64,000 nt of DNA from Eledone cirrhosa (taxonomy: Eukaryota). Below are positions 3,896 to 60,941 of the stretch, piece by piece; position 1 is the first letter of the stretch; every line of letters begins with the position of its first letter. The notes beneath the pieces were generated by a model. That model saw only the letters and a list, made by a program, of their open reading frames with translations. It made no database searches and was not told the origin of the DNA. The translations under genes and the position numbers were made by a program. The stretch is taken from assembly GCA_964016885.1 (NCBI GenBank), contig OZ024743.1, forward strand, positions 238,018,001 to 238,082,000. The letters are read 5' to 3'.

Positions 3896-3902
3896 TATAT
3901 AT

Positions 3903-4042
3903 ATAATGAGGGAAATGTGGTACGGAACCAGATGGACCATAACGCACCAAAGTACTCAATACTTAGGGTAGTAGAGTGGGTAATAGGAACGAGTAGGACC
4001 CCCATGGCTGAGCTCAAGCCGTTTCGACGGCTAATTCTGGAC
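3903..4042 (-). mobile_element. Penelope pseudo-LTR terminal fragment with half a hammerhead
   Basis: Same ~140-bp sequence as 28545-28683, 30061-30200, 32703-32845 and 59417-59560; always abuts (TA)n. Confidence 0.75.
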
Positions 4043-4074
4043 ATATATAATTCTGGATATATATATATATATAT

Positions 4075-4705
4075 ATGAAAAATGGCGTGCTGCGTTGTTA
4101 CAAATGGGATACATATGAATAAAATTAGAGCGAGAGTCCGTCATCAGTGATCTTCCAGCCGTCATTGGTATTTCTTCGCATTAAAGATCATATACCTCTG
4201 GCTGGTGCGGGCAATAACTAAAAAAAGTTATTGGGACACGTAGAATAGGGTGAAGCGAGCGAGACATATAAACAAACAGAGATGGTAATGCAACGGAAAG
4301 AGAGGAAGAGGGGAAACAAGTCCGTGATATCTATGAACTTAAGTTCGATCAAATCATGGACGAGGAGAGACACAGACGCGTTCGAGCCATGTGAGATGTA
4401 AGCGAGAAAAGGATTTCACACAGGTCAGACTGGAGGAAGTGAGAGAGAGGGAGTAGCAGAGAGTGAGTGAGTGAAAGTGTGAGGAAGAGGCCAGCTGAGA
4501 GAGAGTGACTGGCAGAGGGGGTGAAATGAAGGTGAGCAACAACGCAGCACGCCATTTTTCATTTATATTTTGCCCTCTGCTGTGACCAATCTGTTTCTTT
4601 CTTACTGCTATCCTCTTTATCTCTCCCTGTATCTCTCACCTTCATTTCACCCCCTCTGCCAGTCACTCTCTCTCAGCTGGCCTCTTCCTCACACTTTCAC
4701 TCACA
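4075..4705 (-). mobile_element. Non-coding element of the permuted-hammerhead family: minus segment 4075-4538 plus inverted segment 4537-4705
   Basis: Homologous throughout to 53425-54236; the plus segment duplicates both ends of the minus segment. Confidence 0.7.
4140..4209 (-). ncRNA. Candidate non-circularly permuted hammerhead ribozyme, copy A
   Basis: cgca ccagcc aga ggta TA tgatctt taa tgcg aa GAAA tacc aatgac ggctgg aagatca CTGATGA c. Confidence 0.6.
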
Positions 4706-20123: not shown

Positions 20124-21917
20124 TTAAATGTTTTTTTTTAGTTTATGATTACACGATATAATTAATTCCTGTCGTTTATTTAATAGGATATCCTTAGATT
20201 TCATTATTTCAAATAGTTCTTGGGAACATAATCTACATTCATTTCTATTATTTTGATAAGGGGTGGCTCTTTTGAGCACACTCCAGGTCAAATCATATTC
20301 TATATTCCTATTTTTATAACTATTGATTTTTTCTGCTAGAGATGTTGTATTAGCCAGTGCGGCATTTTTAAAACTATCTTTGTGGGTATTAAACCTTGTC
20401 TTAAAATTGTTAGAAGTAGCTCCTATATATGAGCAAATAGAATCTTTAGTTTTAACATTACATTTATAAACTATGTTGTTAACAAGACAATTTCCTTTTA
20501 ATGGGCAGTTTGCTTTGTTTCTACAGTTACAACCTTTCGTTAATTCTGTATTTGAGGAGATATTATGGTTAGTTTGATGTATTGGTGGTATACTTATGGT
20601 TTTCTTACATTTATATGCATTATAGGCACTTATATTTTGTTTTATGTTATTTGTTGTTGAGTATGAGAATTTAACTGTAGACCTATTTAAGATTTGATGG
20701 TATTTGTGGTTTGGCGGGAAGTTTTTCTCTAGGATATAAAAAAATTTTTTAGCAATATTATCCTTAATTTGTAAATTAAATGGAGCATTATACCAAGTAA
20801 CTCGTCTATTACGGTTTCTATGTTGTTTATTATTTTTATTATTTTTATAGGTTGTATCGTGATGTTTACTAGGAGGATTAATGTTAATGATCTCACCACA
20901 ACCATTTTTAGTTATATTTGTAGATTTAGGTGTTTTATCTTTTTTATTAGGAGTTTTATTATTAATATTTATTAGAGTTGTATGATGAGTAGTTTTTTGA
21001 GAGTTACTATATTTTATATTAGAAGATTTGGTATTTTGGGGTATAGTGTGGGTGGCATTTAGGTGTGTACTTTTCATTTGGTGTTTGTTGGTAATATTAG
21101 GTTGTATGTTTTTAGTATTTTTAGTAGAAGGTATATATTCTAATCTATTTTTGTGGCCACTTCTATCTAGAGCTTCGTTATAGAAGGTCGCATTTTTATC
21201 AAATACATCTTGGTTAGAAGAAAGGTTAGAAATTCTAAGTGATATATTATATGCAAGGTTTTTAAGGATAGATTTAGGGTGATTAGATTGTGAGTGTATG
21301 TAATGTAAGTTTTGGTTGGGTTTATGGTAAGGTTGGTAGATACCCGTAGCTAAGTCTAAAGTTATATCTAGGAAATTTACTACTTTACTTGTTTTTTCAA
21401 AAGTAATATGAAGACTATAATAGTCTTTAAGGAAAGTTCTAATATGCTTTTTGTTTTTTTCTATTTCTGAAAGGCTAAGGTTGTTGGAAAGAAGAAGACA
21501 GTCATCACGATATAAACCACCTTTAAGGTGGGGAAAGGAGGCATTTATGTTGAAAAGGAGAAAGAGGCCCACAAGATCAGTAATTTGGGCGGAATCGCTT
21601 GAACCCATAGTAATATCAAATAGATTACTATATGTGTTTCTGGTCCAGTATTCATTCTGAAATTCAATAAGTGTTAGTCTAGCATGTGTAATAATATTAA
21701 TGTCATCCAAAGTTAAGTTAGATCTATTTTTAGCAAATATCAATGCTTTGTTCAGGAGTATAGGTGATATAGAAGAATAGTAATTATCTATATCAAATTG
21801 TAGAAATGAAGCAGAAGATTTACATCTAATATTTTTAAACCAGTTAATTACCTGGGAAGTGTTTTCCCAGAGTGGTAAAATAACGTGTTTTCTTATTTGT
21901 GGGATGACTCTATCCAA
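20124..21917 (-). CDS. Penelope-like RT + GIY-YIG endonuclease, N-terminally truncated, 597 uninterrupted codons
   Basis: FDIDNYYSSI, ITMGS, LYRDD, NFLDITL; CNC...CPL..C linker; IVYKC...YIG; CRLC..E. Confidence 0.9.
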   Translation of the reverse strand: MDRVIPQIRKHVILPLWENTSQVINWFKNIRCKSSASFLQFDIDNYYSSISPILLNKALIFAKNRSNLTLDDINIITHARLTLIEFQNEYWTRNTYSNLFDITMGSSDSAQITDLVGLFLLFNINASFPHLKGGLYRDDCLLLSNNLSLSEIEKNKKHIRTFLKDYYSLHITFEKTSKVVNFLDITLDLATGIYQPYHKPNQNLHYIHSQSNHPKSILKNLAYNISLRISNLSSNQDVFDKNATFYNEALDRSGHKNRLEYIPSTKNTKNIQPNITNKHQMKSTHLNATHTIPQNTKSSNIKYSNSQKTTHHTTLININNKTPNKKDKTPKSTNITKNGCGEIININPPSKHHDTTYKNNKNNKQHRNRNRRVTWYNAPFNLQIKDNIAKKFFYILEKNFPPNHKYHQILNRSTVKFSYSTTNNIKQNISAYNAYKCKKTISIPPIHQTNHNISSNTELTKGCNCRNKANCPLKGNCLVNNIVYKCNVKTKDSICSYIGATSNNFKTRFNTHKDSFKNAALANTTSLAEKINSYKNRNIEYDLTWSVLKRATPYQNNRNECRLCSQELFEIMKSKDILLNKRQELIISCNHKLKKNI

Positions 21918-24774: not shown

Positions 24775-27751
24775 TGTTGCCAAAGAGGGAGATTACCGTT
24801 TTCTCTTTCTTTTATAATACCTGGAACGGAAGTTCAAGGAATGTTCTAGAAATTCTACGGGAAGTATCTCTAGCTACTTCCCTTTATCTAGAGAGCGCTA
24901 CAAGACTCCCCTCTCAGACGAGAAGTCGAATAACCAACCGAAGGTCATTGTAGCGAGAACCCGTAAGAAATGAGGAGCAAAACAAAGGTACAAGAAAATG
25001 CATGAATAAAACATGAGCTCGCAACTGAAGCAAATAGCAAAGAAGCACCAAACCAGTAAATGCATTTTACAAAGAAAAAATGTAAATGTAACAAAACTGA
25101 TAATTCAAAGTTAACATAAAGGAACAGAGAAGAATTAATGCTCAATGGTAAGTTCAAAGTATTTTCAGAATCAAATAGTTCATACATCACCAGTGTACAG
25201 ACTTTTCTGACACTAATTCTATCTGAAACTGAAAAGAGTTTGTTAATGCCACTAGGCGTTAAATGTATATAGTTTTGACAATTTACGTGGCCATTTTACT
25301 GTCCTGCCACTTCGTGTGGCATAAGGTTGTGTGGTATGTTGTGTTTGCGGTGGAGGTGAAGGTGTTGGTGTGGGAGTGAATGTACGAGGTGTATCAGGCA
25401 TTGAAATGAGACTTTCAGAGAAAGCCCTCTTTGCTCTGTCAATGGATATTGTCTCTTTTCGACCATTGACAGCCACTGTGAAATGTTTTGGTGTGTGCGA
25501 AAGCACACGAAAAGGTCCATTATAGGGTGACGTAAGCGGTCCCTTGACGGAAACATTCCGTATAAAAATGTGTGTCCACGTAGAGATGTCCGATCGAACA
25601 GCAGAAGCAATAGACTGGTTACGAGGGTTCATTGGTGGAAAATCCGAGAAGTAAGAACGAATCCTGGTGACATATGATGTTGGATCAAGATGCGATGAAT
25701 CAACCGATGCTAATATTTGACCGGGAAGAGTCAAGGTGGAACCGTAAAGAAGTTCAGCTGAGGAGAAACCCAAATCTGTCTTAACGGCAGAACGACAACC
25801 AAGAAGCACGATTGGCAAAAATTCGGTCCAACGTTGCGGATCAGGTGTAGCGCGGAGTGGAGCTTTCAACTGTCTGTGAAACCTCTCCGCCATTCCGTTG
25901 GAGGCTGGGTGATAGCTGGTGGTATGAATGTGATGAGCACCCCAAAGTCGTGATATTTCACGAAATAAGGAAACCTCGAACTGGCGTCCCCGATCCGTGG
26001 TTATTTTAGAAGGAACACCAAAGCGAGCAACCCAATTGAAAATGAAAGCTCGGGCAACGGACTCGGCTGTTATGTCCACTAGGGGTATGGCTTCAGGCCA
26101 CCGATAGAAACGATCGATACAGGTCAATATATATGTGAACCCACGACTAATGGCCAAGGACCAACAATATCCATGTGAATGTGACGGAAACGAGCGTCCG
26201 GCGGGCTGAATTTACCAAGAGGAGCGCGAATATGCCGATGAACCTTAGAGCGCTGACACTGCAAACAAGAAAGTGCCCAACCGGTAATTAAACGACGCAT
26301 GTTAGGCCAGAAGAATCGGGCCGTGATGAGCTTCACCGTGGCAGCTATGCCGGGATGCGACAAGGAATGAAGTGCATCAAAAATGGTACGCTGATGACAA
26401 TCTGGAACAAGTGGTCTGGGTGAGCCGGTAGAAATGTCGCAAATAATTTTCCCTTCAGCAGACGGAAGAGGTAAATATTCAACTCACAGCAGGAAAACTG
26501 TGTAGGAGTATCCAGAGAATCCAAAGAAGGTTGGTCAGTCGCAATGGCAACCAAATCAATATGTGCAGGAGATGCAAGGGAACACACAGGGAGTCGAGAC
26601 AGTGCGTCCGCGGGTACGTTAGCAGCTCCAGCTATATGATGAATGTCACTGGTGTACTGGGAGATGAAATACAAATGCCTGTATTCTCTCGGAGAGTAAC
26701 TGTCGGACTTGGATTGAAGAGCGAATGTGACTGGTTTATGGTCTGTGAATACCGTGAACTCCCAACCTTAAAGAAGATGGTGGAAGTGTCTCACAGCAAG
26801 ATAAACTGCTAAAAGCTCTCTGTCAAAAGTACTGTAACGTTGCTCAGCTGGTTTTAGTTGGCGTGAGAAAAACGCCAGTGGTTGAAACTGCTGGTTGATT
26901 GTATGTTGCAAGACTGCTCCCACAGCATGGTCGGACGCATCGACAGTTAAGGATAGCCTCGCGTTCGCAAAAGGATGAGCCAGAAAGGAAACTTTAGCTA
27001 TTTCGGAAATGGCGGATTCAAAAGATTGCAAAGTATCGGCAGAAAGTGAAATGGGAGCATCTTTCTTTTTCGCAGCCTTTAAAAACTGTGTTAAGGGAAA
27101 CAACTTGTCCGCACAGTTAGGGATGAAACGACGATAAAAGTTGATTAATCCTAAGAAATGACGTAACTGCCTCAATGAGGTGGGGGGTGCGATTCGCTAA
27201 ATCGCTTCCACCTTAGATGGCAGAGGTTGAATGCCTTTTTAATCTATCAGATGTCCTAGGAATTCCAGTGAAGCTGTACCAAACACACATTTAGCTGGGT
27301 TGATTCTGACCTGGTACGATTGAAGACGTTGAAATAACTGGGATAGATGTTGATGATGATGTTCAGCTGTGTCACTGGCTATCAGGAGGTCATCCACATA
27401 AGCAAACACGAAATCCAATCCACGCATGACTTCATCGATAAAACGTTGGAACGTACTAGAGGCATTGCGCAAACCAAAAGGCATGGACAGGAATTCAAAT
27501 GAACCAAAGAGGGTGGTCACGGCTGTCTTTGGTCTGTCTGGATTCATGGGTATCTGGTGGTATGCACGTACTAGATCTATTTTGGAAAATATCGTGCATC
27601 CATGAAGGACGGATGAAAAATCCTGTTGCCAAAGAGGGAGCTTACCCTTTTCTCTTTCTTTTATAATACCTGGAACGGAAGTTCAAGGAATGTTCTAGAA
27701 ATTCTACGGGAAGTAACTCTAGCTACTTCCCTTTATCTAGAGAGCGCTACA
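24775..27751 (-). mobile_element. Ty3/Gypsy LTR retrotransposon, internally deleted (RT-RH-integrase remain)
   Basis: 24775-24902 and 27623-27751 are near-identical LTR starts (TGTAGCG on minus); PPT gagaggggag at about 24905-24915; YVDD, ELLAVY and DIVGP...DRGRQF...ERFHRQLK; the distal end of the 3' LTR is not resolved. Confidence 0.9.
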
Positions 27752-28496: not shown

Positions 28497-28590
28497 ACCC
28501 CTTGAGAAGATCGGCTATTTAAATACCAGGATAAATTTTCATTTAGTCCAGAATTAGCCGTCGAAACGGCTTGAGCTCAGCTGTCGGGGT
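28497..28590 (+). ncRNA. Type I hammerhead with U3-A8 core in Penelope pseudo-LTR (about 28070-28683)
   Basis: acccc TTGAGAA gatcggcta...tagccgtc GAAA cggcttgagctcagctg TC ggggt. Confidence 0.75.
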
Positions 28591-28681
28591 CTTACTGGTT
28601 CCTATTACCCACTCTACTACCTCAAGTATTGAGTACTTTGGTGCGTTATGGTCCACCTGGTTCCTTACCACATTTCCTTCG

Positions 28682-28749
<68 letters not shown>

Positions 28750-28753
28750 ATGT

Positions 28754-29353: not shown

Positions 29354-30008
29354 ACTAGCAGTGGTACCCGGCATTGCACGAGATAAGGTATTTTGGAACG
29401 CCGGCCGCCAACAGACCTAATCATGGAAAAACTGCATGCCTGGACAATATGTAAAGAAAATAAACCGAATACTCTGATGGCTGGATAATCTTTAAGATTT
29501 TCCTCGATGAAGCAGGAAAAATGCAGGTTTTCACCAAATGAGGGCCCTAGGGGATCAAGAAAATTAACTTTTTTTTATGTGCATAATAAGCCTTGAAATT
29601 TCGGGAAAATCGGCTAGATGTAACGCCTCAAAAAAGCCCTAAAAAGCTGGAAAAATGAAGTTTTTCACATAATGCGGGACTAGGCCATAAAAAAGTTGGC
29701 TTTTCTTTGATCACGGTATCAAGAAGAGACTGACTAATACATAGTTACAATTTCAAGGAAATCAGTCTGCGTAACGTCTAAAAAATCCCCATAAACCTGA
29801 AAAAACGGAGTTTTTCACCTAATGCGGGCCCTAGGGGATCAACAAGTTGAATTTATGTGCATAACACTCCTGAAATATAAGTAATACACATGTAAAGTTT
29901 GAAAAAATTCGATTGGGTACTTCTCGAGTTTTAGGGATTCAAACTCACAGACACAGACACACACACAGAGACAGACATCTTCAGATTTACATATGTTCAT
30001 ATATATTA

Positions 30009-30010
<2 letters not shown>
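29354..30010 (-). mobile_element. Non-autonomous Helitron-like element sharing its 3' end with 28842
   Basis: Same ctagcagtggtacccg terminus; shared acggtat.aagaagagactgactaatacatagttac block; internal subrepeats. Confidence 0.6.
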
Positions 30011-30060
<50 letters not shown>

Positions 30061-30063
<3 letters not shown>

Positions 30064-30260
30064 CGAAGGAAATGTGGTAAGGAACCAGGTGGACCATAAC
30101 GCACCAAAGTACTCAATACTTAGGGTAGTAGAGTGGGTCATAGGAACGAGTAGGATCCCGACGGCTGAGCTCAAGCCGTTTCGACGGCTAATTCTGGACC
30201 TTTTAGTCCAGAATTAGCCGTCGAAACAGCTTGAACTCAGCCGTCGGGGTCCTACTCGGT

Positions 30261-30488: not shown

Positions 30489-30879
30489 AATTTTGAGATA
30501 GAGCGCCCGTGATGTTTGCTCTAATCTGATCAGTTTTGGAAATTCTACCTGTTTTATGTGAAAAAAGTGGCTCCAGAAGTATTAAAATAAGTTTCGTGCC
30601 AATTCGTGTTGCAAAAATTCTTGTGGTCAAAACAATTTTGATTGGTCGGTAGAGGTCACGTGAATGTTAAAAATTGATTTTGCGCCAAATGTAGGTTTGT
30701 CGAAGAGTGTCCTTTTTCGCCTGATTGAGAAGTCACTGAAAAATAAGTCTTTTAAGACAAATATGTGAGTGTAGTAATAGAGGTTCATTGTTGTGATAAT
30801 GGTCAGTAGTGATGTGTGTGTGAATTGCAGTCATGTTGAAAGGTCAACAGTTCAGGTGCCTATTAAGACAAATATGTGT

Positions 30880-32845
30880 GTGTGTGTGCATTTGTTGTTG
30901 AGGGGGCACGTAGATCTATCAGGGCAGTTACACCTCCTGGTCGGCTCTCCACTGATGTCTAGGTTATTTCTTCCATAGGGTTTGTGTTTTTTGTTGTTTG
31001 AGGAGACGATGTTTTGTGCGAAGTTAGGTGTGGTGATGTAGGAGATTTTGATCGTGTTTTTGTTGGTTATGTTGTGGTAGCGGTGGTGTAGTGGGGAGTG
31101 TTTTTCGAGGAGTCTAAAGAAGATTTTCCCGATAGGTGTTGCCACCTCGGCATTATGGGGAGGATTGAACCACGTTACGTTAGGTGAGCGGCGGTGTTGC
31201 CTGCTGGTTCCGCTAAGGGAAGCTGGATAAAAGGATATTTCCTCCCGGAAGCCACTCCGCTTGAGGGCCTAGTTGTAATGAGGCGCGTGTTTGTCGAATA
31301 TCTGCACATTAGCGAACAAACGAGATATGCAGAGGGAGATGTTTTTAACCAGGTTATTGGTGATGTTTCTAGGATGGTTAGAGCGGTGGTGGATGTAGTG
31401 CAGGTTGTTGTTTGGTTTCGTGTATGGGTAGTACATATTATTTTCGAGGTTAAGGGTAACGTCCAGGAAATTGACTCGGAAATTGACTCTGGAAGAAATA
31501 AACTAGACATCAATGGAGAGCCGACCAGGAGGTGTAACTGCCCTGATATATCTACGTGCCCCCTCAACAACAAATGCTGAGAACGTAACGTGATCTACCA
31601 GTGCAACGTGAGGACGGACACCTCCAACAAAGCTTATATAGGATTAACCGCGTGTGACTTCAAGACCTGGCTCTACCAACACCGACATACTTTCCGAAAC
31701 CCGGTCCGGCGACATGCCACTACACTTTCGGGCCACATCTGGGATCTCCAAGATAATAATATAACCTACAATCTCACTTGGAGCTTTCTGTCCAGAGCTA
31801 ACTCTTACACGGGAGGACGCCGTCCGTGTAACTTATGCTCGGAGGAAACATTACAAATGCTGTTTTCGAAAGATCAACTCCTAAACAAGAAAGACGAACT
31901 GGTAACCGCATTCAAACACAGATTGCGTAGGACTTACCTCGCCCTCAAACCCCATAACGACCCGGGTGGGTAGACAAGGGCTGGTACCCCCCACTTGCCG
32001 AATAAGTTAGGGGAAACCCCAGCTTACATAGGTAGATGTATCTCTTTTCTTTTCTTTTCTTTTCTTTTCCTCTTTGTCTTCTTCTTCCCCCCTGTCTCAT
32101 TCTATCACTTCCTTCCACCCCCTATTTTCTTCCTCGTCTGCTTTTCCTCTTTCGCCTACCCCGATGCAGCCCATCGGGCCTCTGTAGCATCAGTTCCCCC
32201 ACCCCTGTAATTTTAAGATAGAATTGGCCGAATACGTTTTACTAACTACTTATAGCAGACTTTAATTTTGTATCAGTTTTGGTACTACTAAATTTCTACA
32301 AGTTTTTTCTATTCTCAACTTATTAATCTGTAATTGTAAGATAGCATTGTGATTTTTTAAATTCATTTCTCACTATCTAATTTTATATATTTTTTTATTT
32401 CTTTATATTATCTTTTATTGTCTCCTACTCCCATTCGATTTACCTATTCTATAACCTCCCTCCTCCACTTCATACACTATTCTGCTGTATACATATCACT
32501 TTCAACGCTTGACCGCTCCACTCACTCCCCTATTGTTCTACAGGCAAGTTCAGCCAGCCCTACCTCCCACCAATTGCCATGATAGACTTATTTGTGTTTA
32601 CAACAAATTTTAACCAATCCTCTTGACAACTAAAATCTTCCCATATAAGGAAGTACCCCCTTGACAAGTTCGGCTATTTATTCACCAGGCTAAAAATTCT
32701 AATTTAGTTCAGAAATAGCCGTCGAAACGGCTTGTGCTCTGCCGCCGGGGGTCACACTTTTTCCTATTTCCCACTCTACTACCCTAAGTATTGAGTACTC
32801 TGGTGCGTTATGGTCCATCTGGTTCCTTACCACAATTCCTTTGTT
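30880..32845 (+). mobile_element. Penelope-like element with inverted 5' part
   Basis: Minus 30880-31480 encodes RT C-terminus and linker; plus 31480-31973 encodes CNC..CPL..C and IYQC...YIG; 3' pseudo-LTR to 32845. Confidence 0.85.
32655..32752 (+). ncRNA. Hammerhead with U3-A8 core; cleavage site mutated (GCC)
   Basis: accccc TTGACAA gttcggctattt...aaatagccgtc GAAA cggc...gccg CC gggggt. Confidence 0.65.
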
Positions 32846-33029
32846 ATATATATATATATACGAGCAGAAAATATATATATTTGTAAATGTATATATATAT
32901 ACATATATACTAGCAGAAAAACCGCCCACGTTCGGTTTTCTGCTAGCATATGTAGTGTGCATATTAGTATTATACGCAAATATATATGTAAATTGAAAAG
33001 TAAATTGACAATATCTTCTTCACCCACTT

Positions 33030-38918: not shown

Positions 38919-41900
38919 ATGTCCCTAACACACGACGATTCATCTACGGCAGAAATGGCAGTCCAGGTGGCGTTTACATTAAGGATACCACCATTCTGGG
39001 TGCACGATCCAACACTGTGGTTCGCGCACATCGAAGCGCAGTTCGCATCGAACCGGATCGTTAGCGAGGCATTTCGTGTAACACATGTTATTGGTTCGAT
39101 GTCTCCGGAGATTATGAATGAGGTTCGAGACCTTATTTTAGCAGCACCCGGCTCTGTGTCATATGACACATTTAAAACGACGTTAAATAAGAGGACGTCG
39201 GAGTCGCAGCAGAAGCGCTTGCACCAGCTTCTCATATCAGAGGAATTAGGAGATAAAAAGCCGACGCATCTCCTACGGCGAATGAAGCAGCTCCTGGGAG
39301 AACATAAACTCTCGGATGAAATTTTCAAGCCACTCTTCCTCCGGCGTTTGCCTTCTGCCACACAAGTTGTCTTAGCGTCCACCAGGGAGTCCACCTCCAT
39401 TGAAGAACTCGCCGAGCTGGCAGATAAAATCATGGAGGTACCACATCCGCACGCGACTTTAGCAAATGTGACGCCAGCGTGCCTTCCACCAATCCTTTCC
39501 TTCAGCCCTCCAGTGCCACAGAGATGCCCGATCTATACCAGCTACTGGCACAGCAAGCAACACAGATACAGGCCTTGACGCAACAAATTCAGGCTTTGTC
39601 ACTGGCTAACCCTGCCACGTGTCGGTCTAACAGTCGAACTCCACAATTCGGTGGTCGCGCTAGAGGTCCGAGCGCATCCCGTGATTCACCAGAAATGTGT
39701 TGGTACAACCAAACATTCGGAAGATGGGCGTGCAAGTGCGGCCATCCCTGTTTATTTGTGTCGATGTCGAACCAGGGAAACGACACAGCCAGACAACTGA
39801 ATGCGTCGGACTTTTCTGGCCCTCAAAATCAAAGTCGCCTGTTTTTCATTCAGGATTGCGTCACAGACACGCGTTTCCTGGTCGACACCGGGGCTGAAGT
39901 CAGCATCATCCCGGTTTCCTGCGTTCCTGGAAAAAGGAAAGAAACACCAGCCTGGCTCCAAGCGGTGAATCGTTCACCTATTCCGACCTACGGAGAGCAG
40001 TCCCTGACACTAAATTTAGGACTACGCCGCACCCTCCAGTGGGTATTCGTTGTGGCTAAGCTGCCGACCCCTATTTTAGGAGCTGATTTTCTTCAGCACT
40101 TCTCACTGCTTGTGGACCTGAAAAACCAACGACTCGTTGACAACTCCACTGGTTTCGCTGTACGCGGCATAGCCGCTCGGACAGCCACAGTCAGTCCAGT
40201 TATTTCACGATCGGCAACAACAACCCGGCTCAGCTATATAATCAACAGATACCCAGACGTAGTTCGACCAGTATTCAACGCTTGCCCTGTAAAACATGAC
40301 GTCACCAACCACATAAAAACACATGGCCCACCTGTCGCTGCACGACCTAGAAGGCTACCACCAGACCGTCTGAAGTCCGTCAGACAAGAATTTCAGCACA
40401 AGCTGGATCTCGGCATCATACGTCCGTCCAGTAGCAACTGGTCCTCACCCATACATTGTGTACCCAAGAAGTCGTCGAACGACTGGCGAATCTGTGGCGA
40501 CTACTGTGCACTGAACAACTGCACCGTGCCTGACTCTTATCCAGTGCCTCATCTACAGGACTTCTCTAGCTCGCTGCACGGAGCTCGCATATTTTCGAAG
40601 ATCGATCTTGTGCGAGCTTACAATCAGATACCTGTGGAGCCCTCTGATATTCCGAAGACCGCCGTCACAACGCCATTTGGAACGTTCGAATTCCTGCGTG
40701 TGCCTTTCGGTTTGCGTAATGCAGCGCAGACATCCCAACGGTTTATTGATACAGTCACCAGAGGTCTACCTTTTGTATACGCATACATAGACGACTTACT
40801 GGAGGCCAGCGGCTCCGAGGAAGAACATGAGAGGCACCTGCACCTGCTATTCGAAGGTTTGTGTGAATTCGGAATTGTTATCAACCCCAGCAAATGTGAG
40901 TCCGGAGTTGCGTCGCTTCATTTTCTGGGACACATCATTGATAAAGATGGCATTCGCCCACTTAAGGAGAAAGTCAAATCCATCATTGATTTTTCACAGC
41001 CCACATCTCTCCGCAAACTGCGAGAATTTCTTGGCCTGGTGAACTTCTACAGAAGATTTATACCCCACTGTGCAGAGACAGCTCAACCGCTCACAGATTT
41101 GATGCGGTAGCGTACAACCAAAAACGCGAACATCAATCTCAGCGAAAAAGAATGTACCGCTTTCGCTGAGTTGAAGAAAATGTTGTCCGAGGCTACAATG
41201 CTGAGTTACCCCAAACCTGATGCCCCAATGATATTGACTGATGCATCCGATTTCGGAGTTGGAGGTGTGCTTCAACAACTCCCTGTCGATATTTGGCGAC
41301 TGTACCTTTTTCCTCTAAGCGATTAAAACCCGCCGAAACTAAGTACAGCATATTCAGTCGTGAATTATTGGTAGCATACCTTCCTGTCAAGCATTTTCGA
41401 CACATGCTAGAAAGTAATGTGTTCTCCATATACACCGTCCACAAACCACTAGTGTATGCGTTCAACGCCAAGCCTGATCGCCACTCACCCAGGGAGGTCC
41501 GACATCTGGACTTCATTTCTCAGTACACTACTGACATTCGGTACATTAAGGGTGCCACCAACTCAGCAGCTGATGCCCTGTCGCGCATGGAGCTTAACGT
41601 AATCCACACCACTGCCACTATCGATCTCCAGAAGATTGCAGCGGATCAACAGGATGACAAGGAACTGCTACAGCCCCGGAAATCATCCTTGAAATTACAG
41701 GAATTCCCACTGCCCTCTTCAGGTTACATTTGGTGCGACATCTCCACAGGCCACGAGCGCCCATACGTGCCCCGGAAACATCGACGCGACGTTTTTTCGG
41801 CACTGCATTCTGTGGCACATCCTAGCGTCCGTGCAAGGCAGAAACTGGTGGTTGCCCGCTTTGTGTGGCCCAACATGAACAAGGACACCTGTGAGTGGGC

Positions 41901-42390
41901 TAGGAACTGTATCGCATGCCAGAAAGCGAAAATTCACCGGCACATCAAAGCCCCGATCGGGTCTTTCGCAACACCTGATTTACGGTTCCAACATGTGAAC
42001 ATAGACATCGTTGGACCTTTGCCTCTTCACAACTACACTCAGCTTCTCATCTGTGTCGACCGGTTTTCTCGTTGGCCAGAAGCTTTTCCCCTGACGGATA
42101 TTACCGCGGAAACTGTCACCAAAACGCTAGTGTTTCACTGGGTTTCGCGTTTCGGCACACCCGCGACCATCACTACGGATAGAGGACGTCAGTTCGATTC
42201 GCACCTCTTTACCGAGCTGACTCGTCTCCTCGGGTGTAAACACATCCGTACCACGGCGTATCACCCTGCAGCTAACGGCATGGTTGAACGTTTCCACCGT
42301 CAGCTAAAAGCAGCCATCAAGGCTTACGCAGACTCCACTAACTGGTTCGAATACCTCCCACTCATTCTTCTTGGTATTCGTTCCACTGTT
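38919..42390 (+). pseudogene. Gypsy gag-pol (gag, protease, RT, RNase H, integrase), disrupted and 3'-truncated
   Basis: PPFW...WFAHIEAQF gag; FLVDTGA; YIDD; TDASD; H..C..C; [19 protein letters not shown]; frameshifts near 39500 and 41280; stop at 41108-41110; no 3' LTR. Confidence 0.92.
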
Positions 42391-42696
42391 AAGGGCCGTA
42401 GATATTGTAAAGGATTTAGTTTGAAACCTTAATGCTCCTATTTATCCGTTTATCTTCGTGAAAGTCCTCAAGGACTAGATGATTTTGGTGTTTCTATTTG
42501 GTTGCTTGGTCTGTATTATATAGTTGTCGAAGGATATAAAATTCTCTATTCCACAGCTTTTATGTATATCATGTAATATTATATTCTGTTTTTATAAATA
42601 TATCATAAAATATATAGTAACAAGAGTTAATTGCTGTTTTTTCTCTCAAGTATTATACTAGGTGAAAAGATTTTTATAAAAAACTGTGTATTAAAC

Positions 42697-43620: not shown

Positions 43621-44069
43621 CTACTATGTAATAATAAGATTTGTATGTATGTGTGTGTGTGGATGTGGATGTTGGTGGGTTGGAGAGGGGGAGGGGGTGA
43701 TCATATCTGGATGTTTAAAAAATAAAATTACTAAAATAAGTACCAGACTTGAAAAAATAAGTACTGAGGTCTATATAATCAACTAAATATTTTCAAGCCA
43801 GTGACCCAGCATGACTGCAGTCTAATGAAAGAACCCAGCAAAAGAATAAATATTTACATCATCTTCCAAACATGCTGTTAGTAGATAGCGTTCCCTTTCT
43901 TCTGCCTCTCACTGTTACTCATTTCCCTCCAATAAACACTCTTTTCTCTTTCTTTTTTTCCCTTTCCCTTCAACCACATAACATACATATGCAAGCAGAT
44001 TTAATATGATAGATTATAGATACTATTCTAGATTATATGATTTTTAACATTTGTTATTTCTAATTTCAG

Positions 44070-44440
44070 AAATATCAACTACTAATATCAAACTACTACT
44101 GGAAAAATGCTCTACTTATGGACCTTATCAATGCCAGTTGTTAATTTTATTATTCTCCCTGAACTTTTGCATAGTATTGCCATCAATGAGTTTGATATTT
44201 ATCAGTGCCAACGTCCCTTTCTTATGCTACCCTCCAAACTTTAATGCTTCTGCAATTCCTCCAAATCTTACAGAGAATCAATATTTACACATGTTTCAAC
44301 CTGGACCCAATCAATGTTTTGTGTATAACAACAGTTTCACTGAGATATATTATTCAATGTCACCCAGTAATTTATCTACAGTACCCTGTTCCTATGGACG
44401 GAAGTTTATGACAGACAATTTTTCTTCAACTGTAAGTGAG
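44070..44440 (+). CDS. SLC22-family transporter exon (TM1 + large Cys-containing extracellular loop)
   Basis: tttcag acceptor; G.YQ motif, TM segment, C...C...C..G..F...STVSE; GAG|GTGAGT donor. Confidence 0.9.
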
Positions 44441-44504
44441 GTGAGTTGGTAATCTATTAAATCTAGTAAAACGAGGGGTAAAGTCACATCATTATTATTA
44501 ACTA

Positions 44505-49059: not shown

Positions 49060-49151
49060 TAGTATATGTTGGTTGTATACCAACACCTCAGTATGCAGGC
49101 TGGAGCACTCGACGAAGTGCGCAGGTTGGTTTGGTTACTCCCGGAGTAATG

Positions 49152-52100
49152 TAAAATAAAGTTAAATAAAAAGTCAAATGTTTAAAATTTAGCTTCGTTT
49201 ATTACTGCTATATATATTTCAGTGACAGCCATCTTTGGCTGTGACCTCTTTGGGCAGTCCGAATTAGTGTGGTTTAGACAAGTATATATGTTGTTGAGGT
49301 GTATAATATTGTGAATACTCTGATATGCCCAGTTCCTGGTTGGGTTGTTATTTCACTAAGGAACTGGAATCATATGAATTCAAACAAACGAATTTCAGCG
49401 TCAAAGGACCTCTTCTCCTCTCATTGGTCAGTTGTTAGAACATTCCTCATTCTAAGTGTTGTTATTGTTGGAGTTAGCTTAAAAAATTGATAAAGTGGTA
49501 GAAGGGACAAGGTGTTAAAGGAACAAAATAACAAAAAAAGTGTCAAACTTCCCATTGGTCAGTTCTGAGAGCATTCCTCAGTCAGAAGTCTATAGAATTC
49601 TTTCTGGGGTGAGGCTCCCTGTAGTGTTTGTGTTACAAAAATACACCTGGATTTACCCTGGATGAGATCAATGCCACAGCTTACAGGTTTATATCTAGAA
49701 TCGGCATAGAGGACAGGACGGCGCCATACCAACCAAGGGAGCCGCGGATTACCCTTAAAGATCACGAGCCAAACTTTGAGTCCGACCTCCCTGTCAGACC
49801 AATAGCCCCCTCCAGATCTGACCTAGGGATCGTCAGTAAAAGAATACTGGATAGGATTTTGCCCAAGCTTCGGAAGAAAACTAAATTAAAGCAATGGTCA
49901 TGCACGGGAGAAGTAATAGAATGGTTTAAAATACTGCATGAGAAAAGTAGGACCAGCTTTATACAACTGGACATCGCAAGCTACTACTCCTCAATCTCAC
50001 CCATAGTACTTAATAAGGCCCTATTTTTAGCGATGTCCAATACGGACCTAACCCGCGAGGAGGTGAGCATCATCCACGCCGCAAGAAATACCTTAATCCG
50101 TTTCGATGGAGACCTTTGGACCAGGAGTGATTGGCCAAATAACTTTGACATCACGATGGGCTCCAGCGACTCAGCAAAGGTAACGGACCTGGTTGGGCTC
50201 TACCTGCTGAAGCAGATAAAAGATGAAATCCCCTGCTTGGGCGGCGGATTATACCGTGACGATGCTCTATTCACAGTATATGACCACAGCACCAATATGT
50301 TGGAGGGAATGAGGAGACGTATTCGCCATTTCTTTAAGAACCAGGGGCTCATTATAGAAATAGACCCAAATAGGAAGGTAGTTAACTTCCTAGACACCAC
50401 CCTAAACCTGAACACCGAACAATACTACCCCTACCACAAGCCCAACGAGAAACTCGTATATGTTAACGCCAAATCAAACCACCCTATATCCTTAACCAAG
50501 GCAGTGGTGAAGAGTGTCTCGGACAGGATCTCCAGCCTGTCCGCAAGTAAGGAAATATTCAATAACCACGCGTAATATTACAACGCAGCTCTAAAGAAGG
50601 CGGCACATGGCCAAAATATAACATATAGTCCGAAACGCCGGGATGGGGATAGCCCAACAGACACCCACACCCGCGTTGCCCGGGGGGGGGGTACCCTAAC
50701 AATACAGGCAGAGCTGAAACAAATAGGCACCATGTGCCCGACACCACCACACGGGCGGTGGTGACTAGTACACTTAACCACGAGACGAAACACAATATGA
50801 GTAACAGTCTCAGGGGTGACGCTAACCACCCCAGGACCGACGACCCCAACCGCAGGACACATAGGGGGAACGGGGGACCACCCCACGATAGATCTCCCAG
50901 CGCGGGCAATGACCACCCCACAGATTCCGGCCGTGAAGATAACAAAAAGCATAGCGCCCAAAGGGGAAGAAACAGTGCAGAAACCACCAGCAACCCAACA
51001 AATCTCCAACAAATCACGACGCCCCCGACCCACACATATAGGAGGAGACACCGAAAAATCACGTGGTACAACCCACCCTACTCAGCGGCCCTAAAGAACA
51101 GCTTGGCCCGATCATTCTTTGGAGCACTTGATAAATGCTTCCCGAGGGACCACAGATACCACAGGATCTTCAACAGACACACTGTGAAGCTCTCGTATTC
51201 CACCACGAGAAATCTGGCCCAACACATAGCTAGCATCAACAGGAGTAGGCTTAAAAACCACACACAAACAGAAGATGGCAATACAAGCACTCAGCAGAAC
51301 CATGTGAAAGGAGGGAAGGGGGGACCCAGAGCCCACCAAGATACCCAAACAGACCCGGGGATCCCCCACCGTGCCTTGGGGAATACCAACATGTAATACA
51401 TAACGGGAACCCTAATCTAGGCACGCAGAGGTCGACCACCATCTGCAACTGCAGAAACCCCGAATCATGCCCCCTTGGTAATGAATGCCTGAAGAAGAAC
51501 CTAGTATACGGTTGAAGGGTTAAAACCCCCAACTCCGAACACCTCTACATAGGAGCCACATCAACGAGCTTTAAAGACCGCTGGTACAACCATCGCCATT
51601 CATTCAAAAAGGAGGCCAAAAGGAAAAGCACGGCTCTCTCCGACCTGATCTGGAAGCTTAAGCTGGACAGGACCCCGTACTCTCTGGCCTGGTACATAAT
51701 CAGGAAAGTACCACCCGATAAAGGGGGATCCTGCATATGCAAACTATGCCTGAACGAGACCCTCGAGATACTAAGAGGAGGAAGCGGCCTGATAAACCTC
51801 AGAACCGACTTCTTCGGGACATGCAGACACCTTAGAGCCGGGACCTTCCTCAAGATATATGGACAGTAACAACACAAGAAGATGTGAACTCCTCTCAAGC
51901 TATAGGGACTTCTACAGAACATGTAAACACCTCTCAGCCAGACCTCCATCAAGCTATATGTGCAGTAACAACACCCTAGGTTGTGAACTCCCCTCAAGCC
52001 ATAAGGAACAACCCAGGCTGAGCAGACACCATGATAGCCTAGAGATTGAATCGGACACAGCCATTATAATTTGGCCAACATCTATATAACACAAACACAT

Positions 52101-53182
52101 TTTAATTTACTTGATTTCTGACTTTCAAGTCCCAATTTTAAATCTTGATTTCTCTTTATTAATTTGTTATTTGTTTTCTACCCTCTTCACTGTATCACCT
52201 TATATTTATTTTTAAGTTGAGATTGATTATTACACAAACACATTTTGTTTGATTATCTTATTTTAACATCTTGTACCTCATACCAATCTATCCAACATAT
52301 TTCTGACTTTGAGATTGGTTATAGCACACACACACTTTATCCTACTTTATTTGAATCTTCATTTTATTTTTCACTTCTCCATGTTCATTTTCATTACTTT
52401 TTCACCAATTTTTCATTTATTCTTTATTCTTTATTCTTTATTCTCTATTTATTATTTATTTTCAAATTATACAAATTATATTATTTATTTTCTGTTTTCT
52501 TCATATATTGCCTTATATTTCTTCATATACATGGAAGACCCCTCCCCCCCACCACCACCACTATGAGAGATGGTGGCAGGAGGGATGAAGAAAAAACACT
52601 CACAGATACTTCTAAATTGTCAACAGAAGCAAAACATAAGCTGACCACAACACCAACAACACTACCAAAATAATGGTAGTGGTCAAATGTGCTTAACAAT
52701 AGCAAACACAAACACTACAGGGAGCCTCACCCCAGAAAGAATTCTATAGACTTCTGACTGAGGAATGCTCTCAGAACTGACCAATGGGAAGTTTGACACT
52801 TTTTTTGTTATTTTGTTCCTTTAACACCTTGTCCCTTTTACCACTTTATCAATTTTTAAGCTAATTCCTACAATAACAACACTTAGAATGAGGAATGTTC
52901 TAACAACTGACCAATGAGAGGAGAAGAAGCCCTTTAACACTGAAATTCGTTTGTTTCAATTCATATGATTCCAGTTCCTCAGTGAAATAACAACCCAACC
53001 AGGAACTGGGCATATCAGAGTATTCACAATATTATACACCTCAACAACGTATATACTTGTCTATACCACACTAATTCGGACTGCCTGAAGAGGTCACAGC
53101 CAAAGATGGCTGTCACTGAAATATATATAGCAGTAATAAACGAAGCTTAATTTTAAACATTTGACTTTTTATTTAACTTTAT

Positions 53183-53183
<1 letters not shown>
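49152..53183 (+). mobile_element. Penelope-like element with inverted pseudo-LTRs, intronic
   Basis: 49152-49634 is the reverse complement of 52703-53183; RT 49628-50575 (LYRDD); linker; GIY-YIG remnant at about 51440-51860; premature stops. Confidence 0.92.
53080..53134 (+). ncRNA. Type I hammerhead ribozyme in 3' pseudo-LTR
   Basis: actgc CTGAAGA ggtcacagcc aaagat ggctgtcact GAAA tatata TA gcagt; the inverted copy at 49203-49258 has a mutated core (CCAAAGA). Confidence 0.85.
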
Positions 53184-53213
<30 letters not shown>

Positions 53214-53266
53214 GATAATAATGGAGCTGCGGCGCTGCAAATGGGTTACATATGAAAAAGTTTATC

Positions 53267-53336
53267 CTCATTAGTGGCCTTCCAACCGTCGTAGGCATTT
53301 CGTCGCATTAAAGGCCATATACCTCAGGTTGGTGCG
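53267..53336 (-). ncRNA. Permuted hammerhead copy B, core mutated (CTAATGA)
   Basis: Reverse complement of copies C and D with G5A. Confidence 0.5.
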
Positions 53337-53520
53337 AGCAACGGCTAAAAAAACTCGTTGGGACACATAAATAAAGGGGACGCTAGGGTAAACAAACAAA
53401 ATGGTTTAAGCAACAGAAAGTGATGCTTCTTCATCACTTTCTGTTGCTTAAACCATTTTGTTTGTTTACCCTAGCGTCCCCTTTATTTACGTGTCCCAAC
53501 GACTTTTTTTAGCCGTTGCT

Positions 53521-53590
53521 CGCACCAACCTGAGGTATATGGCCTTTAATGCGACGAAATGCCTGCGACGGTTGGAAGGCCACTGATGAG
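53521..53590 (+). ncRNA. Candidate non-circularly permuted hammerhead, copy C
   Basis: cgca ccaacc tga ggta TA tggcctt taa tgcg ac GAAA tgcc tgcgac ggttgg aaggcca CTGATGA g. Confidence 0.62.
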
Positions 53591-54151
53591 GATAAACTTT
53601 TTTCATATGTAACCCATTTGCAGCGCCGCAGCTCCATTATTATCATATTTACACATATATTTTTTCCTCCGCTGCCACCAGTCTGTTTCGTTCTTTGTGT
53701 CTTTACCCTTTCTAGCAGTCTCTCTCTCTCTCTCTCTGTTAGCCTCTTCCTCACCTTTCACTCACTCACTCTCTGTCACTACCTCTCCTCCTCCCCTTTC
53801 TTCCCGTTTGAGCTGTCCGTAATCCTTTTCTCGCGGGCACTTGGCCAAGCCGGTATGAATTTTTTTCTCTCTCTCTCGTCTGCGACTTCACAGAACTTAT
53901 GTTTACCGAATTCGCAGACCAGACCCCTTCTTCCTCCCGTTAGACCTGTGCGAAATTCCTTCCTTGCTCACATTTCAACCAGGTTTGATGGTCTTTATTC
54001 TCTCGTTCACGATTCCACCGAATTTATATTCATAGAAATCTGGGACTTGTTTCTTTCTTCTTCATCACTTTCTGTTGCTTAAACCATTTTGTTTGTTTAC
54101 CCTAGCGTCCCCTTTATTTACGTGTCCCAACGACTTTTTTTAGCCGTTGCT

Positions 54152-54221
54152 CGCACCAACCTGAGGTATATGGCCTTTAATGCGACGAAATGCCTACGAC
54201 GGTTGGAAGGCCACTGATGAG
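54152..54221 (+). ncRNA. Candidate non-circularly permuted hammerhead, copy D
   Basis: As copy C, 631 nt downstream. Confidence 0.62.
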
Positions 54222-54230
54222 GACAACCTT

Positions 54231-54295
<65 letters not shown>

Positions 54296-54299
<4 letters not shown>

Positions 54300-54817
54300 T
54301 ATGCATGTATGTAAACGTACATACATATATGTATACAGACGTACAGTAGTATGTATATATATACATATATGCACACATATATATATGCACGTATCGGCTT
54401 ACCGAACATTTATTATAAGGCTCGGTTTGTTTGTTTGTAAACAAACAAACACGACTGAATTCAATCGATATGCAAATTAGGCTGCTCAGCCGTTTATATG
54501 CATGAGGAAAGTATATACTTTCAGACGTTCAACCATCTGGCAGGAAGGTATACGATGCTGACGATAGCTAATAAGCTTGAAACTAGTACATCGTTCCTGT
54601 GTCAGTGTTGAACAAAAAGGTGACGTGGTTGCCTAAACACTGTACAGCGTGATTCGGGCTGTTTGTTTGTTTACAAACAAACAAACCGAGCATTATAGTA
54701 AATGTTCGGTAAACCGATACGTGCATATATATGTGTGCATGTATGTATATATATATATACATACTACTGTACGTCTGTATACATATATGTATGTACGTAT
54801 ACATACATGCATACTTA
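54296..54817. mobile_element. Non-coding fold-back element with ~155-bp inverted arms around a hammerhead
   Basis: 54296-54452 is the reverse complement of about 54660-54817. Confidence 0.7.
54552..54594 (+). ncRNA. Minimal type I hammerhead ribozyme (43 nt)
   Basis: acgatg CTGACGA t agct aata agct t GAAA ctag TA catcgt. Confidence 0.85.
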
Positions 54818-54877
54818 CATTTAAGTAAGTGCCGTACTAAGAGTGAGAAATGAAATTTCGTTTCATTCTATTCCATT

Positions 54878-55035: not shown

Positions 55036-55114
<79 letters not shown>

Positions 55115-55119
<5 letters not shown>

Positions 55120-57752
55120 CCAAAAATAGATCAAACTTAACTATGGATGACATTAATATTATCACACATGCTAGACAAACACTACTGGAATTTCAGAAAG
55201 AATACTGGACCAGAAACACATATAGTAATCTATTCGACATTACTATGGGCCCTAGTGATTCTGCCCAAATTACCGATCTTGTGGGCCTCTTTCTTCTATT
55301 TAACATAAATGCTTCTTTTCCCCACCTTAAAGGTGGTTTATATCGTGACGACTGTCTTCTTCTTTCCAATAACCTTAGCCTATCAGAAATTGAAAAAATA
55401 AAAAACTTATTAGAACTTTCCTCAAAGACTATTATAGTCTAGATATTACATTTGAAAACACAAGTAAAGTAGTTAATTTCCTTGATATAACATTAGACTT
55501 ATCTACGGGTATCTACCAACCTTACCATAAACCTAACCAAAACTTACATTACATACACTCACAATCTAATCACACTAATTCTATCCTTAACAACTTAGCA
55601 TATAATATCTCACTCAGAATTTCTAACCTTTCGTCTAACCAGGATGTATTTGATAAAAATGCGACCTTTTATAACGAAGCTTTAGCTAGAACTGGCCACA
55701 AAAACAAATTAGTATATATAACTTGTACCAATAACACTACAAACATACAACCCAATATTACCAACAAACACCAAATGAAATATACACACCTAAATGCCAC
55801 TCACACTATACACAAAAATACCAACATTAAACTTAATTTCTCTAACTCTTCTAACATACAATATAGTAACTTTCAAAAAACCATTCATCCTAATACTCCA
55901 ATATATGTTAATAACAAAATTCCTAATAAACAGGCTAAAACACCTAAATCAATGAATCTAACTAAAAATATGTGTAATAAAATCACTAACACTAATTCTC
56001 TTAATAAACATCAGGATACATCCTATAAAAATAATAAACAACATCGAAACCGTAATAGACGAGTTACTTGGTATAATGCTCCATTTAATCTACAAATTAA
56101 AGATAATATACCTACACATTTTTTTAGTATCCTAGAGAAAAACTTCCCGCCAAACCATAAATACCATCAAATTTTAAATAGATCAACGGTTAAATTCTCC
56201 TACTCAACAACCAAAAATATACAACAGAATATAAGTGCCTATAATGCATATAAATGTAAAAAAAAACATGAATATACCACCAATACATCAAACTAACCAT
56301 AATACTAAAATAAACCACAGCAAACCACCATCTCATTCACATACAAGTCGTAAAAATTCCACAACTAATTTGACTATTTCCTCTGATACAGCATTCACGA
56401 AAGGTTGTAACTGTAGAAACAAAGCAAATTGCCCATTAAAAGGAAATTGCCTTATTAATAACATAGTATATAAATGTAAAATTAACACTAAGGACTCAAC
56501 TTATTCATATATAGGAGCTACTTCTAACCATTTTAAAGTAAGATTTAATACCCACAAACAGTTTTAAAAATGCCGCATTAGCTAATACAACATCCTTAGC
56601 TGAAATAATTAATAATTATAGAAAAAGGAATATAGATTATAACCTGACCTGGAGTGTGCTCAAAAGGGGCACCCCTTATCAAAATAATAGATATGAATGT
56701 AGATTATGTTCCCAGGAACTTTTTGAAATAATGAAATCTAAGGATATCCTATTAAATAAGCGACAGGAATTAATTATATCATGTAATCATAAATTGAGAA
56801 GAACTTTTAAATATCATAAACCTAATTAATATACACTTTACAAATTATTATAATAACATTTTTTAAAAATTAGTTAACCTATAATTAATATTCTACTACT
56901 AATGAACTGCATAATTTTATTTCCCTTTTAAAGCTATCTTTTCCTAAAATTTATACCAATAAGTATAAACTATTTTAATTTCAGGTTATGAATCTATATT
57001 CCTTATAATCTATATAAATTGGTTATTTCTCACTAATAAATTTACCCCCCCCCCCCAATAATAATAATAATTATTTTTTATTTATCTTCGTTTTTAACAG
57101 CACTCTTCAATTACATCTAACTCTTATTTATCATATGTATATGAATTAATATAAATTTATCAATATAAATATACCTATCAATTTAATTAATTTATTTTCT
57201 TTTTATAGATGTAAATTCCTTATATTTTGAATAAGATTGATATTTTTCACTAACACATTTATCGTAAAATTTTATTCTCCTTAGATATTTACATTAGCAT
57301 TATTCTTTTTTAACATCAATTTTTCGTGTACCTTTTACCGACTTGACCTATTTTCATCCCCAAAATAATCTTTTCATTCATTATACTCTTTCCATTCAAA
57401 AAACTGAAATCTGCTTTCCTCTACCCCTAAATTAAAGTTCTATTACTACAATTCTACCATCTTGACCACTTACTACCTTTCTATTGGTCAATTCAAAACC
57501 TGTTCCCAAACAGACCTATTATATTAAATCTTTGTTGATTTTTTTCAATAAACAAATATCATTAATTCTGAAGACAGCATATATATGTGTAGGTACGTAT
57601 ATTCCCTCTGATAGTTTGTAAAATTTTTACATAGGTCTATATGATATACATACCAACACACACATATATATCCTAGAAACGATCGTAAAATGATGAATTT
57701 TTTAATATATGGAACTGTTTCTTTGTTTTTATTCATTATTTTTATTAATTTA
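55115..57752 (+). mobile_element. Penelope-like element, sister of 15741-21947, frameshifted, intronic
   Basis: Near-identical peptides ([18 protein letters not shown]...LYRDD; CNCRNKANCPLKGNCL; YIG); (TA)n at both ends. Confidence 0.92.
57559..57696 (+). ncRNA. Type I hammerhead ribozyme in pseudo-LTR
   Basis: tcattaatt CTGAAGA cagcatatatatgtg...cacatatatatccta GAAA cgatcg TA aaatgatga. Confidence 0.75.

Positions 57753-59229: not shown

Positions 59230-60941
<1,712 letters not shown>

Follow-up and report, generated by a model that had tools for sequence, protein, structure and literature searches.

A candidate hammerhead ribozyme of type-SGC order with a split stem II in a non-coding Penelope-type tandem retroelement of an animal genome

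We describe a family of dispersed tandem elements in an animal genome whose conserved RNA motif is predicted to be a self-cleaving hammerhead ribozyme. The explanation that we consider likely is a monomeric hammerhead in which the SGC/GCS/CSG cyclic order is opened at a new place, and which would process the transcripts of a non-coding, non-autonomous Penelope-type tandem retroelement; the ribozyme is probably active. We also lean, with less assurance, towards regarding it as the first case of a non-circularly permuted hammerhead that resides in an animal genome and is active in vivo, with a topology outside the six published block orders, in that the CUGANGA block and its stem II strand would be disconnected, with a side-arm junction holding the block, and stem III would be folded back on a kink-turn (k-turn). 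The element, with at least 17 subfamilies and ~25,000 copies, would then be a new kind of retrozyme.

The window, a stretch of 64,000 nt of genomic DNA, contains four copies of the motif (A to D, Table 1). A first-pass annotation had placed a 70-nt motif at 4140-4209 (A) and 53267-53336 (B) on the minus strand and at 53521-53590 (C) and 54152-54221 (D) on the plus strand, and a check against the sequence verified these coordinates and strands together with the helices and substitutions listed for them, including the natural G5A change of copy B, which reads CTAATGA (window 53272). The 70-nt motif is present but incomplete, as the conserved unit spans ~103 nt (53492-53594 in copy C) and adds an upstream hairpin (Pb), a closing helix (Pa, the strand 5' of the Pb hairpin paired with the bases after CUGAUGA), a fifth stem II pair and, where stem III meets the extra helix (P4), a 3-nt bulge with tandem GA. 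The earlier helix list had thus overlooked Pa, Pb and the k-turn-like loop. A private change in Pa (window 53593 and 53264) is common to copies B and C and is lacking from copy D and almost every contig. Copy B, the inverted one, therefore probably derives from C or shares a template unit with it. The comparison with Rfam that had been proposed gave no match for the motif anywhere in the window at gathering thresholds, which also missed a neighbouring minimal type I motif.

Table 1. Motif copies, the parts of copy C, and the insertions that carry them (window coordinates)
Feature	Position	Strand	Basis or remark
Copy C, whole structured motif (type-SGC-order hammerhead, split stem II)	53492..53594	+	Sequence, subfamily and natural-copy alignments
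Pa 5' strand, partner 53590-53594, closes motif	53492..53496	+	Covaries GUCC/GGAC, UUCC/GGAA, AUCC/GGAU; 9 bp in subfamily O
Pb hairpin, abuts Pa	53497..53518	+	Rank 2 covarying pair; missing in subfamilies M and R
Stem II strand from 5' side, partner 53550-53554	53520..53524	+	Subfamily and natural-copy pairing
P4 5' strand (stem I/II interaction helix), partner 53570-53575	53525..53530	+	4 of top 7 covarying pairs; two-sided change in 5/6 pairs
K-turn-like loop, non-bulged strand (3n, G2n, A1n)	53531..53533	+	Partner is 3-nt bulge and GAC at 53564-53569; k-turn folding predicted from consensus in PMC4316175
Stem III strand, U16.1 (53538), H17 (53539)	53534..53539	+	Predicted cut between 53539 and 53540
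Stem I strand (partner 53576-53582) and UAA linker	53540..53549	+	Covariation, subfamily and natural-copy pairing
Stem II strand, 11.1 (53555), G12-A13-A14-A15.1 (53556-53559), stem III strand	53550..53563	+	Subfamily pairing, anchor-free core set
3-nt bulge, GAC, P4 3' strand, stem I strand	53564..53582	+	Subfamily and natural-copy pairing
CUGAUGA (53583-53589) and Pa 3' strand	53583..53594	+	G53590 able to pair with C11.1 in subfamily C
Copy D, tandem unit 631 nt downstream of C	54123..54225	+	Predicted cut after 54170
Copy B, within inverted 5' part of insertion	53263..53365	-	G5A, presumed dead; predicted cut position after 53318
Copy A, other subfamily	4136..4239	-	~74% identical over 300 nt; predicted cut after 4191
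Whole insertion with B, C and D	53198..54241		Inverted truncated copy (end 49 nt longer), complete 631-nt unit and part of a second; flanked by (TA)n
Insertion carrying copy A	4057..4704		Short inverted segments; ends approximate

Copies were gathered by similarity to C, to A and to three divergent copies, and by sequence patterns. nhmmer returned 333 matches, 214 of them unique and near full length; clustering 211 of these gave 18 groups and 14 left-overs, and dropping four mixed groups and splitting one yielded 15 subfamilies, with M and O taken from their own 20-copy alignments. All 15 subfamilies follow the plan 5'-Pa-Pb-P2-P4-NGA-P3-UH-P1-UAA-P2'-N-GAAA-P3'-NNN-GAY-P4'-P1'-CUGANGA-(0-3 nt)-Pa', with Pb missing in M and with Pa, of 4-9 bp, in every subfamily. 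Among the 15 consensuses, 295 of the 300 cells of helices P1 to P4 are paired and 18/20 pairs show two-sided change, where the registers of J, L1, L2 and O are the parser's choice within 1-2 nt and a parse without the shorter stem I-II linker register of L1 and L2 gives 278/300. By parsimony on the tree, ~31 (30-32) compensatory events fall among ~82 stem substitutions. The same tree with substitutions shuffled among stem columns leaves 198.8 +/- 13.4 paired cells (maximum 246 in 2000), and slid registers pair only 79-101 of the 300. Two subfamilies fetched afterwards pair at 19 of 20 positions each in the fixed register; four further copies from this later set, 2 of them incomplete, formed a mixed group with a meaningless consensus and were set aside. 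Across the 15 subfamilies and the two later ones, the annotation's hammerhead reading, its strand assignment, the position of its predicted cut and the register of stems I, II and III with the core were borne out.

Pairing was also assessed in individual copies. In a MAFFT alignment of 11 natural copies, 92.4% pairing was observed over 35 pairs including Pa and Pb (each of the six helices being 85-98% paired) with two-sided change at 21; none of 500 shuffles matched this, in a control that ignores kinship. A structure-blind G-test with APC on the 211 copies placed predicted pairs in all of the top 7 positions among ~6,800 column pairs (four in P4, two in P1, one in Pb). P4, the tertiary contact between stems I and II, has the strongest covariation, and stem II the weakest (2/5 pairs in the 11 natural copies). 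The annotation had called for R-scape and for significant stem covariation over many copies; the pairing as a whole exceeds the tree-aware null, but in an R-scape-like test of the 211 copies with a tree-based null no single pair reached E<0.05 (best 0.08-0.68). Pa is absent from the results of that test because MAFFT misaligns it. The old subfamilies M and R (L169-L188, L375-L385) lack Pb and have a 3-nt spacer before Pa, and so are natural deletion controls.

The catalytic core is conserved on a genome-wide scale. In the 3.0-Gb genome (G000), the pattern GAAA-N7-GA-N14-CTGATGA has 20,880 exact matches compared to 54 for the reversed pattern, and the same pattern with a non-U at position 7 has 4,797 further matches compared to 293; being tied to a single geometry, these counts are lower bounds. 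This excess over the reversed pattern means that the core pattern is not due to chance. Variants with G5 replaced are few (756 compared to 152 in the control, many of those listed being unrelated repeats), and variants at position 7 form amplified subfamilies with C, G or A. Since circularity had to be avoided, we chose 91 anchor-free copies by Pb and the P2 strand only. Of these, 85 cover the core: 80-85 copies retain any given one of the 11 invariant positions, 65 are fully intact, and position 7 alone varies freely (T42/C42/G1). The core comprises C3 U4 G5 A6 N7 G8 A9, G12 A13 A14 A15.1, U16.1 and H17, and the cleavage triplets of the 15 subfamilies are AUA (7), AUC (3), GUA (3), GUU (1) and GUC (1). 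In these alignments an invariant core with a free position 7 is the hammerhead pattern, and the conservation of the 11 positions held up in copies picked without core letters.

The G10.1-C11.1 pair departs from this conservation. With partners for 11.1 sought just 3' of A9 and just 5' of P2, it is possible in only 4/15 subfamilies (from the 3' side in C, from the 5' side in L1, L2 and O); another Watson-Crick or wobble pair is available in 9, and A and E have no partner. According to the parts of PMC4209133 drawn on here, G10.1-C11.1 is highly conserved, and Penelope hammerheads can have a spare base between 9 and 10.1. The pair is not universal among hammerheads.

We consider it most improbable that the motif is instead a twister-type ribozyme or a chance arrangement in a young repeat. 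Its UAA-UGCG and UCCCAA strings do resemble twister strings in the alignment of the PMC10085705 supplement. In contrast with twister, GAG never follows the P2 strand, and the T2 pair of the pseudoknot to the UNNNAA loop is possible in only 5/15 subfamilies even by a loose test, for which reasons the twister reading was rejected; the silence of Rfam and a covariation far above the tree-aware null argue against both twister and chance.

Between stem III and P4, the k-turn signature (a 3-nt bulge followed by G.A and A.G) takes its standard form in 10 of the 15 subfamilies and the Kt-23 type (A.U at 2b.2n) in 3, as judged by the consensus in PMC4316175 and with the bulged-strand GA having belonged to the search pattern for most subfamilies. 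The signature is missing in L1 and L2, which retain the bulge and have Watson-Crick pairs or an insertion in place of the tandem GA; these are further natural deletion controls. Nested folding recovered Pa, Pb, P3 and P4 for most subfamilies, but for C (z of only -1.4 and -1.7 in the flagged copies), E, J and O other structures were favoured. Nested folding programs do not count the stacking of stems I and II, which would add ~11-21 kcal/mol. A competing hairpin at 53532-53546 and equivalent positions pairs the GA/stem III strand with the stem I strand, leaves the cut site in its loop and is 5/5 paired in 9/15 subfamilies; it is possibly a conserved off-state or a trace of duplication.

Such competing monomer folds would suit a hammerhead that requires two tandem units, dimerised or domain-swapped, for instance with stem II and P4 strands taken from the next unit, and so would the tandem units themselves, the closed ring in which stems I, II and III plus P4 link two junctions, and the design of metazoan Penelope hammerheads, which are built to act as dimers (PMC4209133). 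We nevertheless judge this reading unlikely, as dimeric hammerheads have a palindromic stub where stem III here is a full, covarying 5-bp helix, Pa closes each unit on itself, and a single-motif transcript of SGC-1 cleaves with 0 nt separating stem III from the interaction helix (PMC10085705, whose parts drawn on here leave molecularity aside). The suggestion in the annotation that short linkers may force a dimer or domain-swapped fold did not stand, since those of SGC-1 are equally short, yet it cleaves during transcription (PMC10085705), so that short linkers alone do not impose one.

The host element has a consistent anatomy. The plan of the insertion with copies B, C and D (partial tandems with inverted 5' copies, ending at either of two sites 49 nt apart) is repeated in the 30 closest loci, and the head-to-tail joint of the tandem unit is visible in three contig runs covering the unit. 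Units are non-coding, mostly 520-700 nt long and carry one ribozyme motif each; of 40 same-strand motif spacings, 5 fall at 520-540 nt and 20 at 620-720 nt. A (TA)5, (CA)5 or (TG)5 run lies within 160 nt downstream of 100/133 copies, compared to 74/523 background tiles. Across 374 loci with flanks of up to ~1.5 kb, we found no open reading frame contiguous with the motif and no autonomous element that shares the motif or the ends; Penelope-like protein matches occur in 14 of these loci, and the Penelope-like coding fragments upstream in sense at L271 and L351 were rejected as the element's own frame, being separate neighbours. Penelope-like elements are characterised by partial tandems, inverted 5' copies, a one-sided tail and (TA)n targets (PMC8557442), and animal retrozymes have been argued to be non-autonomous derivatives of them (bioRxiv 10.64898/2026.07.22.740005; PMC7229834). 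The element shares with that class its non-coding tandems, a ribozyme in each unit, inverted 5' copies, a tail and a microsatellite target, and lacks the type I hammerhead in a 150-450 bp unit that marks non-LTR retrozymes.

Several other sequences lie near the insertions. An adjacent Penelope-like element (49149-53189) carries in its terminal repeat an ordinary minimal type I hammerhead at 53080-53134 (+), with CUGAAGA, a palindromic stem III stub and a fold z of -2.39; the core of an inverted copy at ~49204-49260 is broken. Pfam assigned no family to any of five frames in the window that we take to be Penelope-like from their YRDD, MGS, WYNPP and YIG motifs together with the anatomy of the element, and it was also silent on what are presumably more such coding fragments, by motifs, at 20042-21740, 55113-56889, 30852-32082 and 59721-60201. 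Ty3/gypsy-like LTR retrotransposon fragments occupy 39428-42432 and 25252-27682, with Pfam RVT_1 and RVP for 39428-41107. A 200-nt repeat family in (TA)n, often beside these elements, occurs at 3837-4042, 28546-28751, 30007-30199, 32707-32909 and 59362-59556 and also at L271, and a MITE-like long imperfect palindrome (54290-54823) lies immediately 3' of copy D. At L121, L163 and among the listed pattern variants, another repeat has CUGAUGA and GAAA inside a palindrome; these are probably inverted junctions at ordinary minimal hammerheads. The open frame at 44048-44452 (+) presumably resembles an exon of an SLC22-type transporter.

Genomic scars were found at the predicted cut site. Six anchor-free copies end before A9, two of them exactly after H17 with a joint into the element body and one a base later in (TA)n. 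With a pattern allowing 0-14 nt of spacing, 51/51 copies join the element body exactly after H17 without microhomology, compared to 0 for the control. Most of the 51 share private variants, so they go back to one or a few founding events that were amplified later; L060 may represent a second one. One locus has three head-to-tail junction-type units of 320 nt, which DNA-level duplication could also explain. A sub-lineage at loci L340-L372 (e.g. L370, G000:C4:65372800-65375200) consists of 320-nt units: each stops at the predicted cut, and the next begins at a fixed G within the element body. This G may be a transcription start. A splice junction was rejected as the origin of the joint, as the joined sequence retains GTATA and the G before CCAG. 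When 116 copies chosen by a 3' core pattern were mapped against their subfamily consensus, 22 5' ends (19 loci) fell at -4 to +16 of the cut compared to 7 (7 loci) at -46 to -5 (p = 4e-5), a cluster that TA microhomology or stalling of the reverse transcriptase (RT) could also produce. Several inversion joints lie at -1 of the cut. The junction copies may be a DNA record of cleavage in vivo followed by ligation or template jumping.

Most insertions run past the cut site and through upstream copies, so much of the template was either uncleaved or re-ligated. This would fit a silent or very slow hammerhead-derived fold that is kept as a recognition or packaging signal for a Penelope RT/endonuclease, as would the loss of G10.1-C11.1 from most subfamilies, the interrupted block C, and the Naiad elements, which thrive without canonical hammerheads (PMC8557442). 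Against such a fold, the bases required for catalysis are exactly the invariant ones while position 7 and H17 vary, the junction lies precisely at the predicted scissile bond, and 5' ends step up at the cut; we regard it as quite unlikely.

For a cleaving monomer, which we prefer, we propose that P3 and P4 would fold first as one arm bent at the k-turn-like loop, and that the 5' and 3' flanks would then pair into the loop of this arm as stems II and I. A9 would not be continued covalently by the stem II strand; instead Pa, stacked on Pb where present, would staple both ends at that point, with 11.1 pairing with the nucleotide that follows A9 or with the one that precedes P2. In hammerhead chemistry G12 serves as the base and the 2'-OH of G8 as the acid, and by hammerhead precedent cleavage after H17 would yield a 2',3'-cyclic phosphate and a 5'-OH. 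Multimeric read-through transcripts would be cut to unit-length RNAs, with the remainder of each unit looping out from Pa, and these RNAs could circularise and be copied into (TA)n in trans by an autonomous Penelope-like RT/endonuclease, as proposed for type I retrozymes.

If correct, these assignments bear on several questions. Non-circular hammerhead permutations were reported in 2023 from environmental RNA, and the present family, which supplies thousands of natural variants, breaks the rule of uninterrupted blocks. A k-turn between stem III and the interaction helix would be a concrete answer to how the two come close in three dimensions, and through it a host protein of the L7Ae family could tune cleavage. 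Whole classes of hammerhead in Penelope-type elements can escape descriptor searches; Craig et al. described Naiad elements with 'half cores' that fit no descriptor (PMC8557442). The junction copies, if they record cleavage, bear on the role of hammerheads in Penelope retrotransposition, and a ribozyme whose ends leave via a side arm would be a new scaffold for engineering circular RNAs and switches.

Compared to known systems, the element resembles Penelope-like elements in its partial tandems, inverted 5'-truncated copy, one longer tail, (TA)n and ribozyme near the 3' end (PMC4209133, PMC8557442), and differs in having no open reading frame, a full stem III, another wiring and a tail of 49 nt in subfamily C rather than 30-40. 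With metazoan non-LTR retrozymes (Cervera and de la Pena 2020, PMC7229834; Li, Clavereau, Pollet 2026) it shares dispersed, high-copy, non-coding tandems with one ribozyme per unit. Those elements have type I hammerheads in 150-450 bp units and demonstrated expression of circular RNA, whereas the element described here has a pseudoknotted hammerhead of SGC order in mostly 520-700 bp units and is described from DNA copies. Measured against the kink-turn (PMC4316175), the standard signature in 10/15 subfamilies, the Kt-23 type in 3 and its absence in L1 and L2 describe a predicted k-turn.

The closest relative is type SGC (HRIMA-1 and variants), described by Eckert, Friedrich, Weinberg and Weinberg in 2023 from 583 sequences in metatranscriptomes (PMC10085705). 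The annotation had held that UH > GAAA > CUGANGA is an order that no circular permutation yields; it is indeed non-circular, but it had already been published and biochemically validated as this type, so the order alone is not new, and what is new is the wiring and the host element. The parts of PMC10085705 drawn on here report cleavage at 0.007-0.19 per min for SGC ribozymes with a 3-nt I-II linker and interaction helix, and a search of RefSeq 85; a single type-GCS candidate is given as the only one of the RNAs to occur in the genome of a known organism. They take CUGAnGA to be inseparable from its stem II strand, with blocks uninterrupted, and leave open how stem III and the interaction helix approach each other in 3D. 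We found no eukaryotic SGC-order hammerhead in the literature searched (mostly open-access papers), nor any such form in the available portions of PMC3088659, PMC10162972 and PMC13725137; a term search for 'octopus' in the accessible part of the PMC10085705 supplement was empty, and one exact pattern had a single match in metagenome contigs (L189, without the stems) and none in viral contigs.

Block order S > G > C, ~3 nt between the stem I and II strands, an additional helix that connects stems I and II at their far ends, an identical cyclic strand order and, often, one spare base after A9 are common to type SGC and the present family (PMC10085705). The published descriptor nonetheless fails in 15/15 subfamilies, as block C is not contiguous: P2' finds at most 2 contiguous pairs from a 3' strand compared to 4-5 from the 5' strand, which upheld the annotation's choice of the 5' cgca as stem II partner. 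The RNA would thus resemble a type-SGC hammerhead in its working while lacking that type's defining contiguity. In the published RNAs the stem II strand directly follows CUGAUGA(U) and the RNA begins at stem III, whereas here the stem II and P4 strands lie 5', P4 runs on covalently into stem III via the k-turn-like loop, the A9/stem II junction also carries Pa and Pb, and G10.1-C11.1 has given way to other bases in most subfamilies. Finally, the published sequences come from metatranscriptomes, in contrast with the ~25,000 DNA copies, as estimated from pattern matches, in one animal genome.
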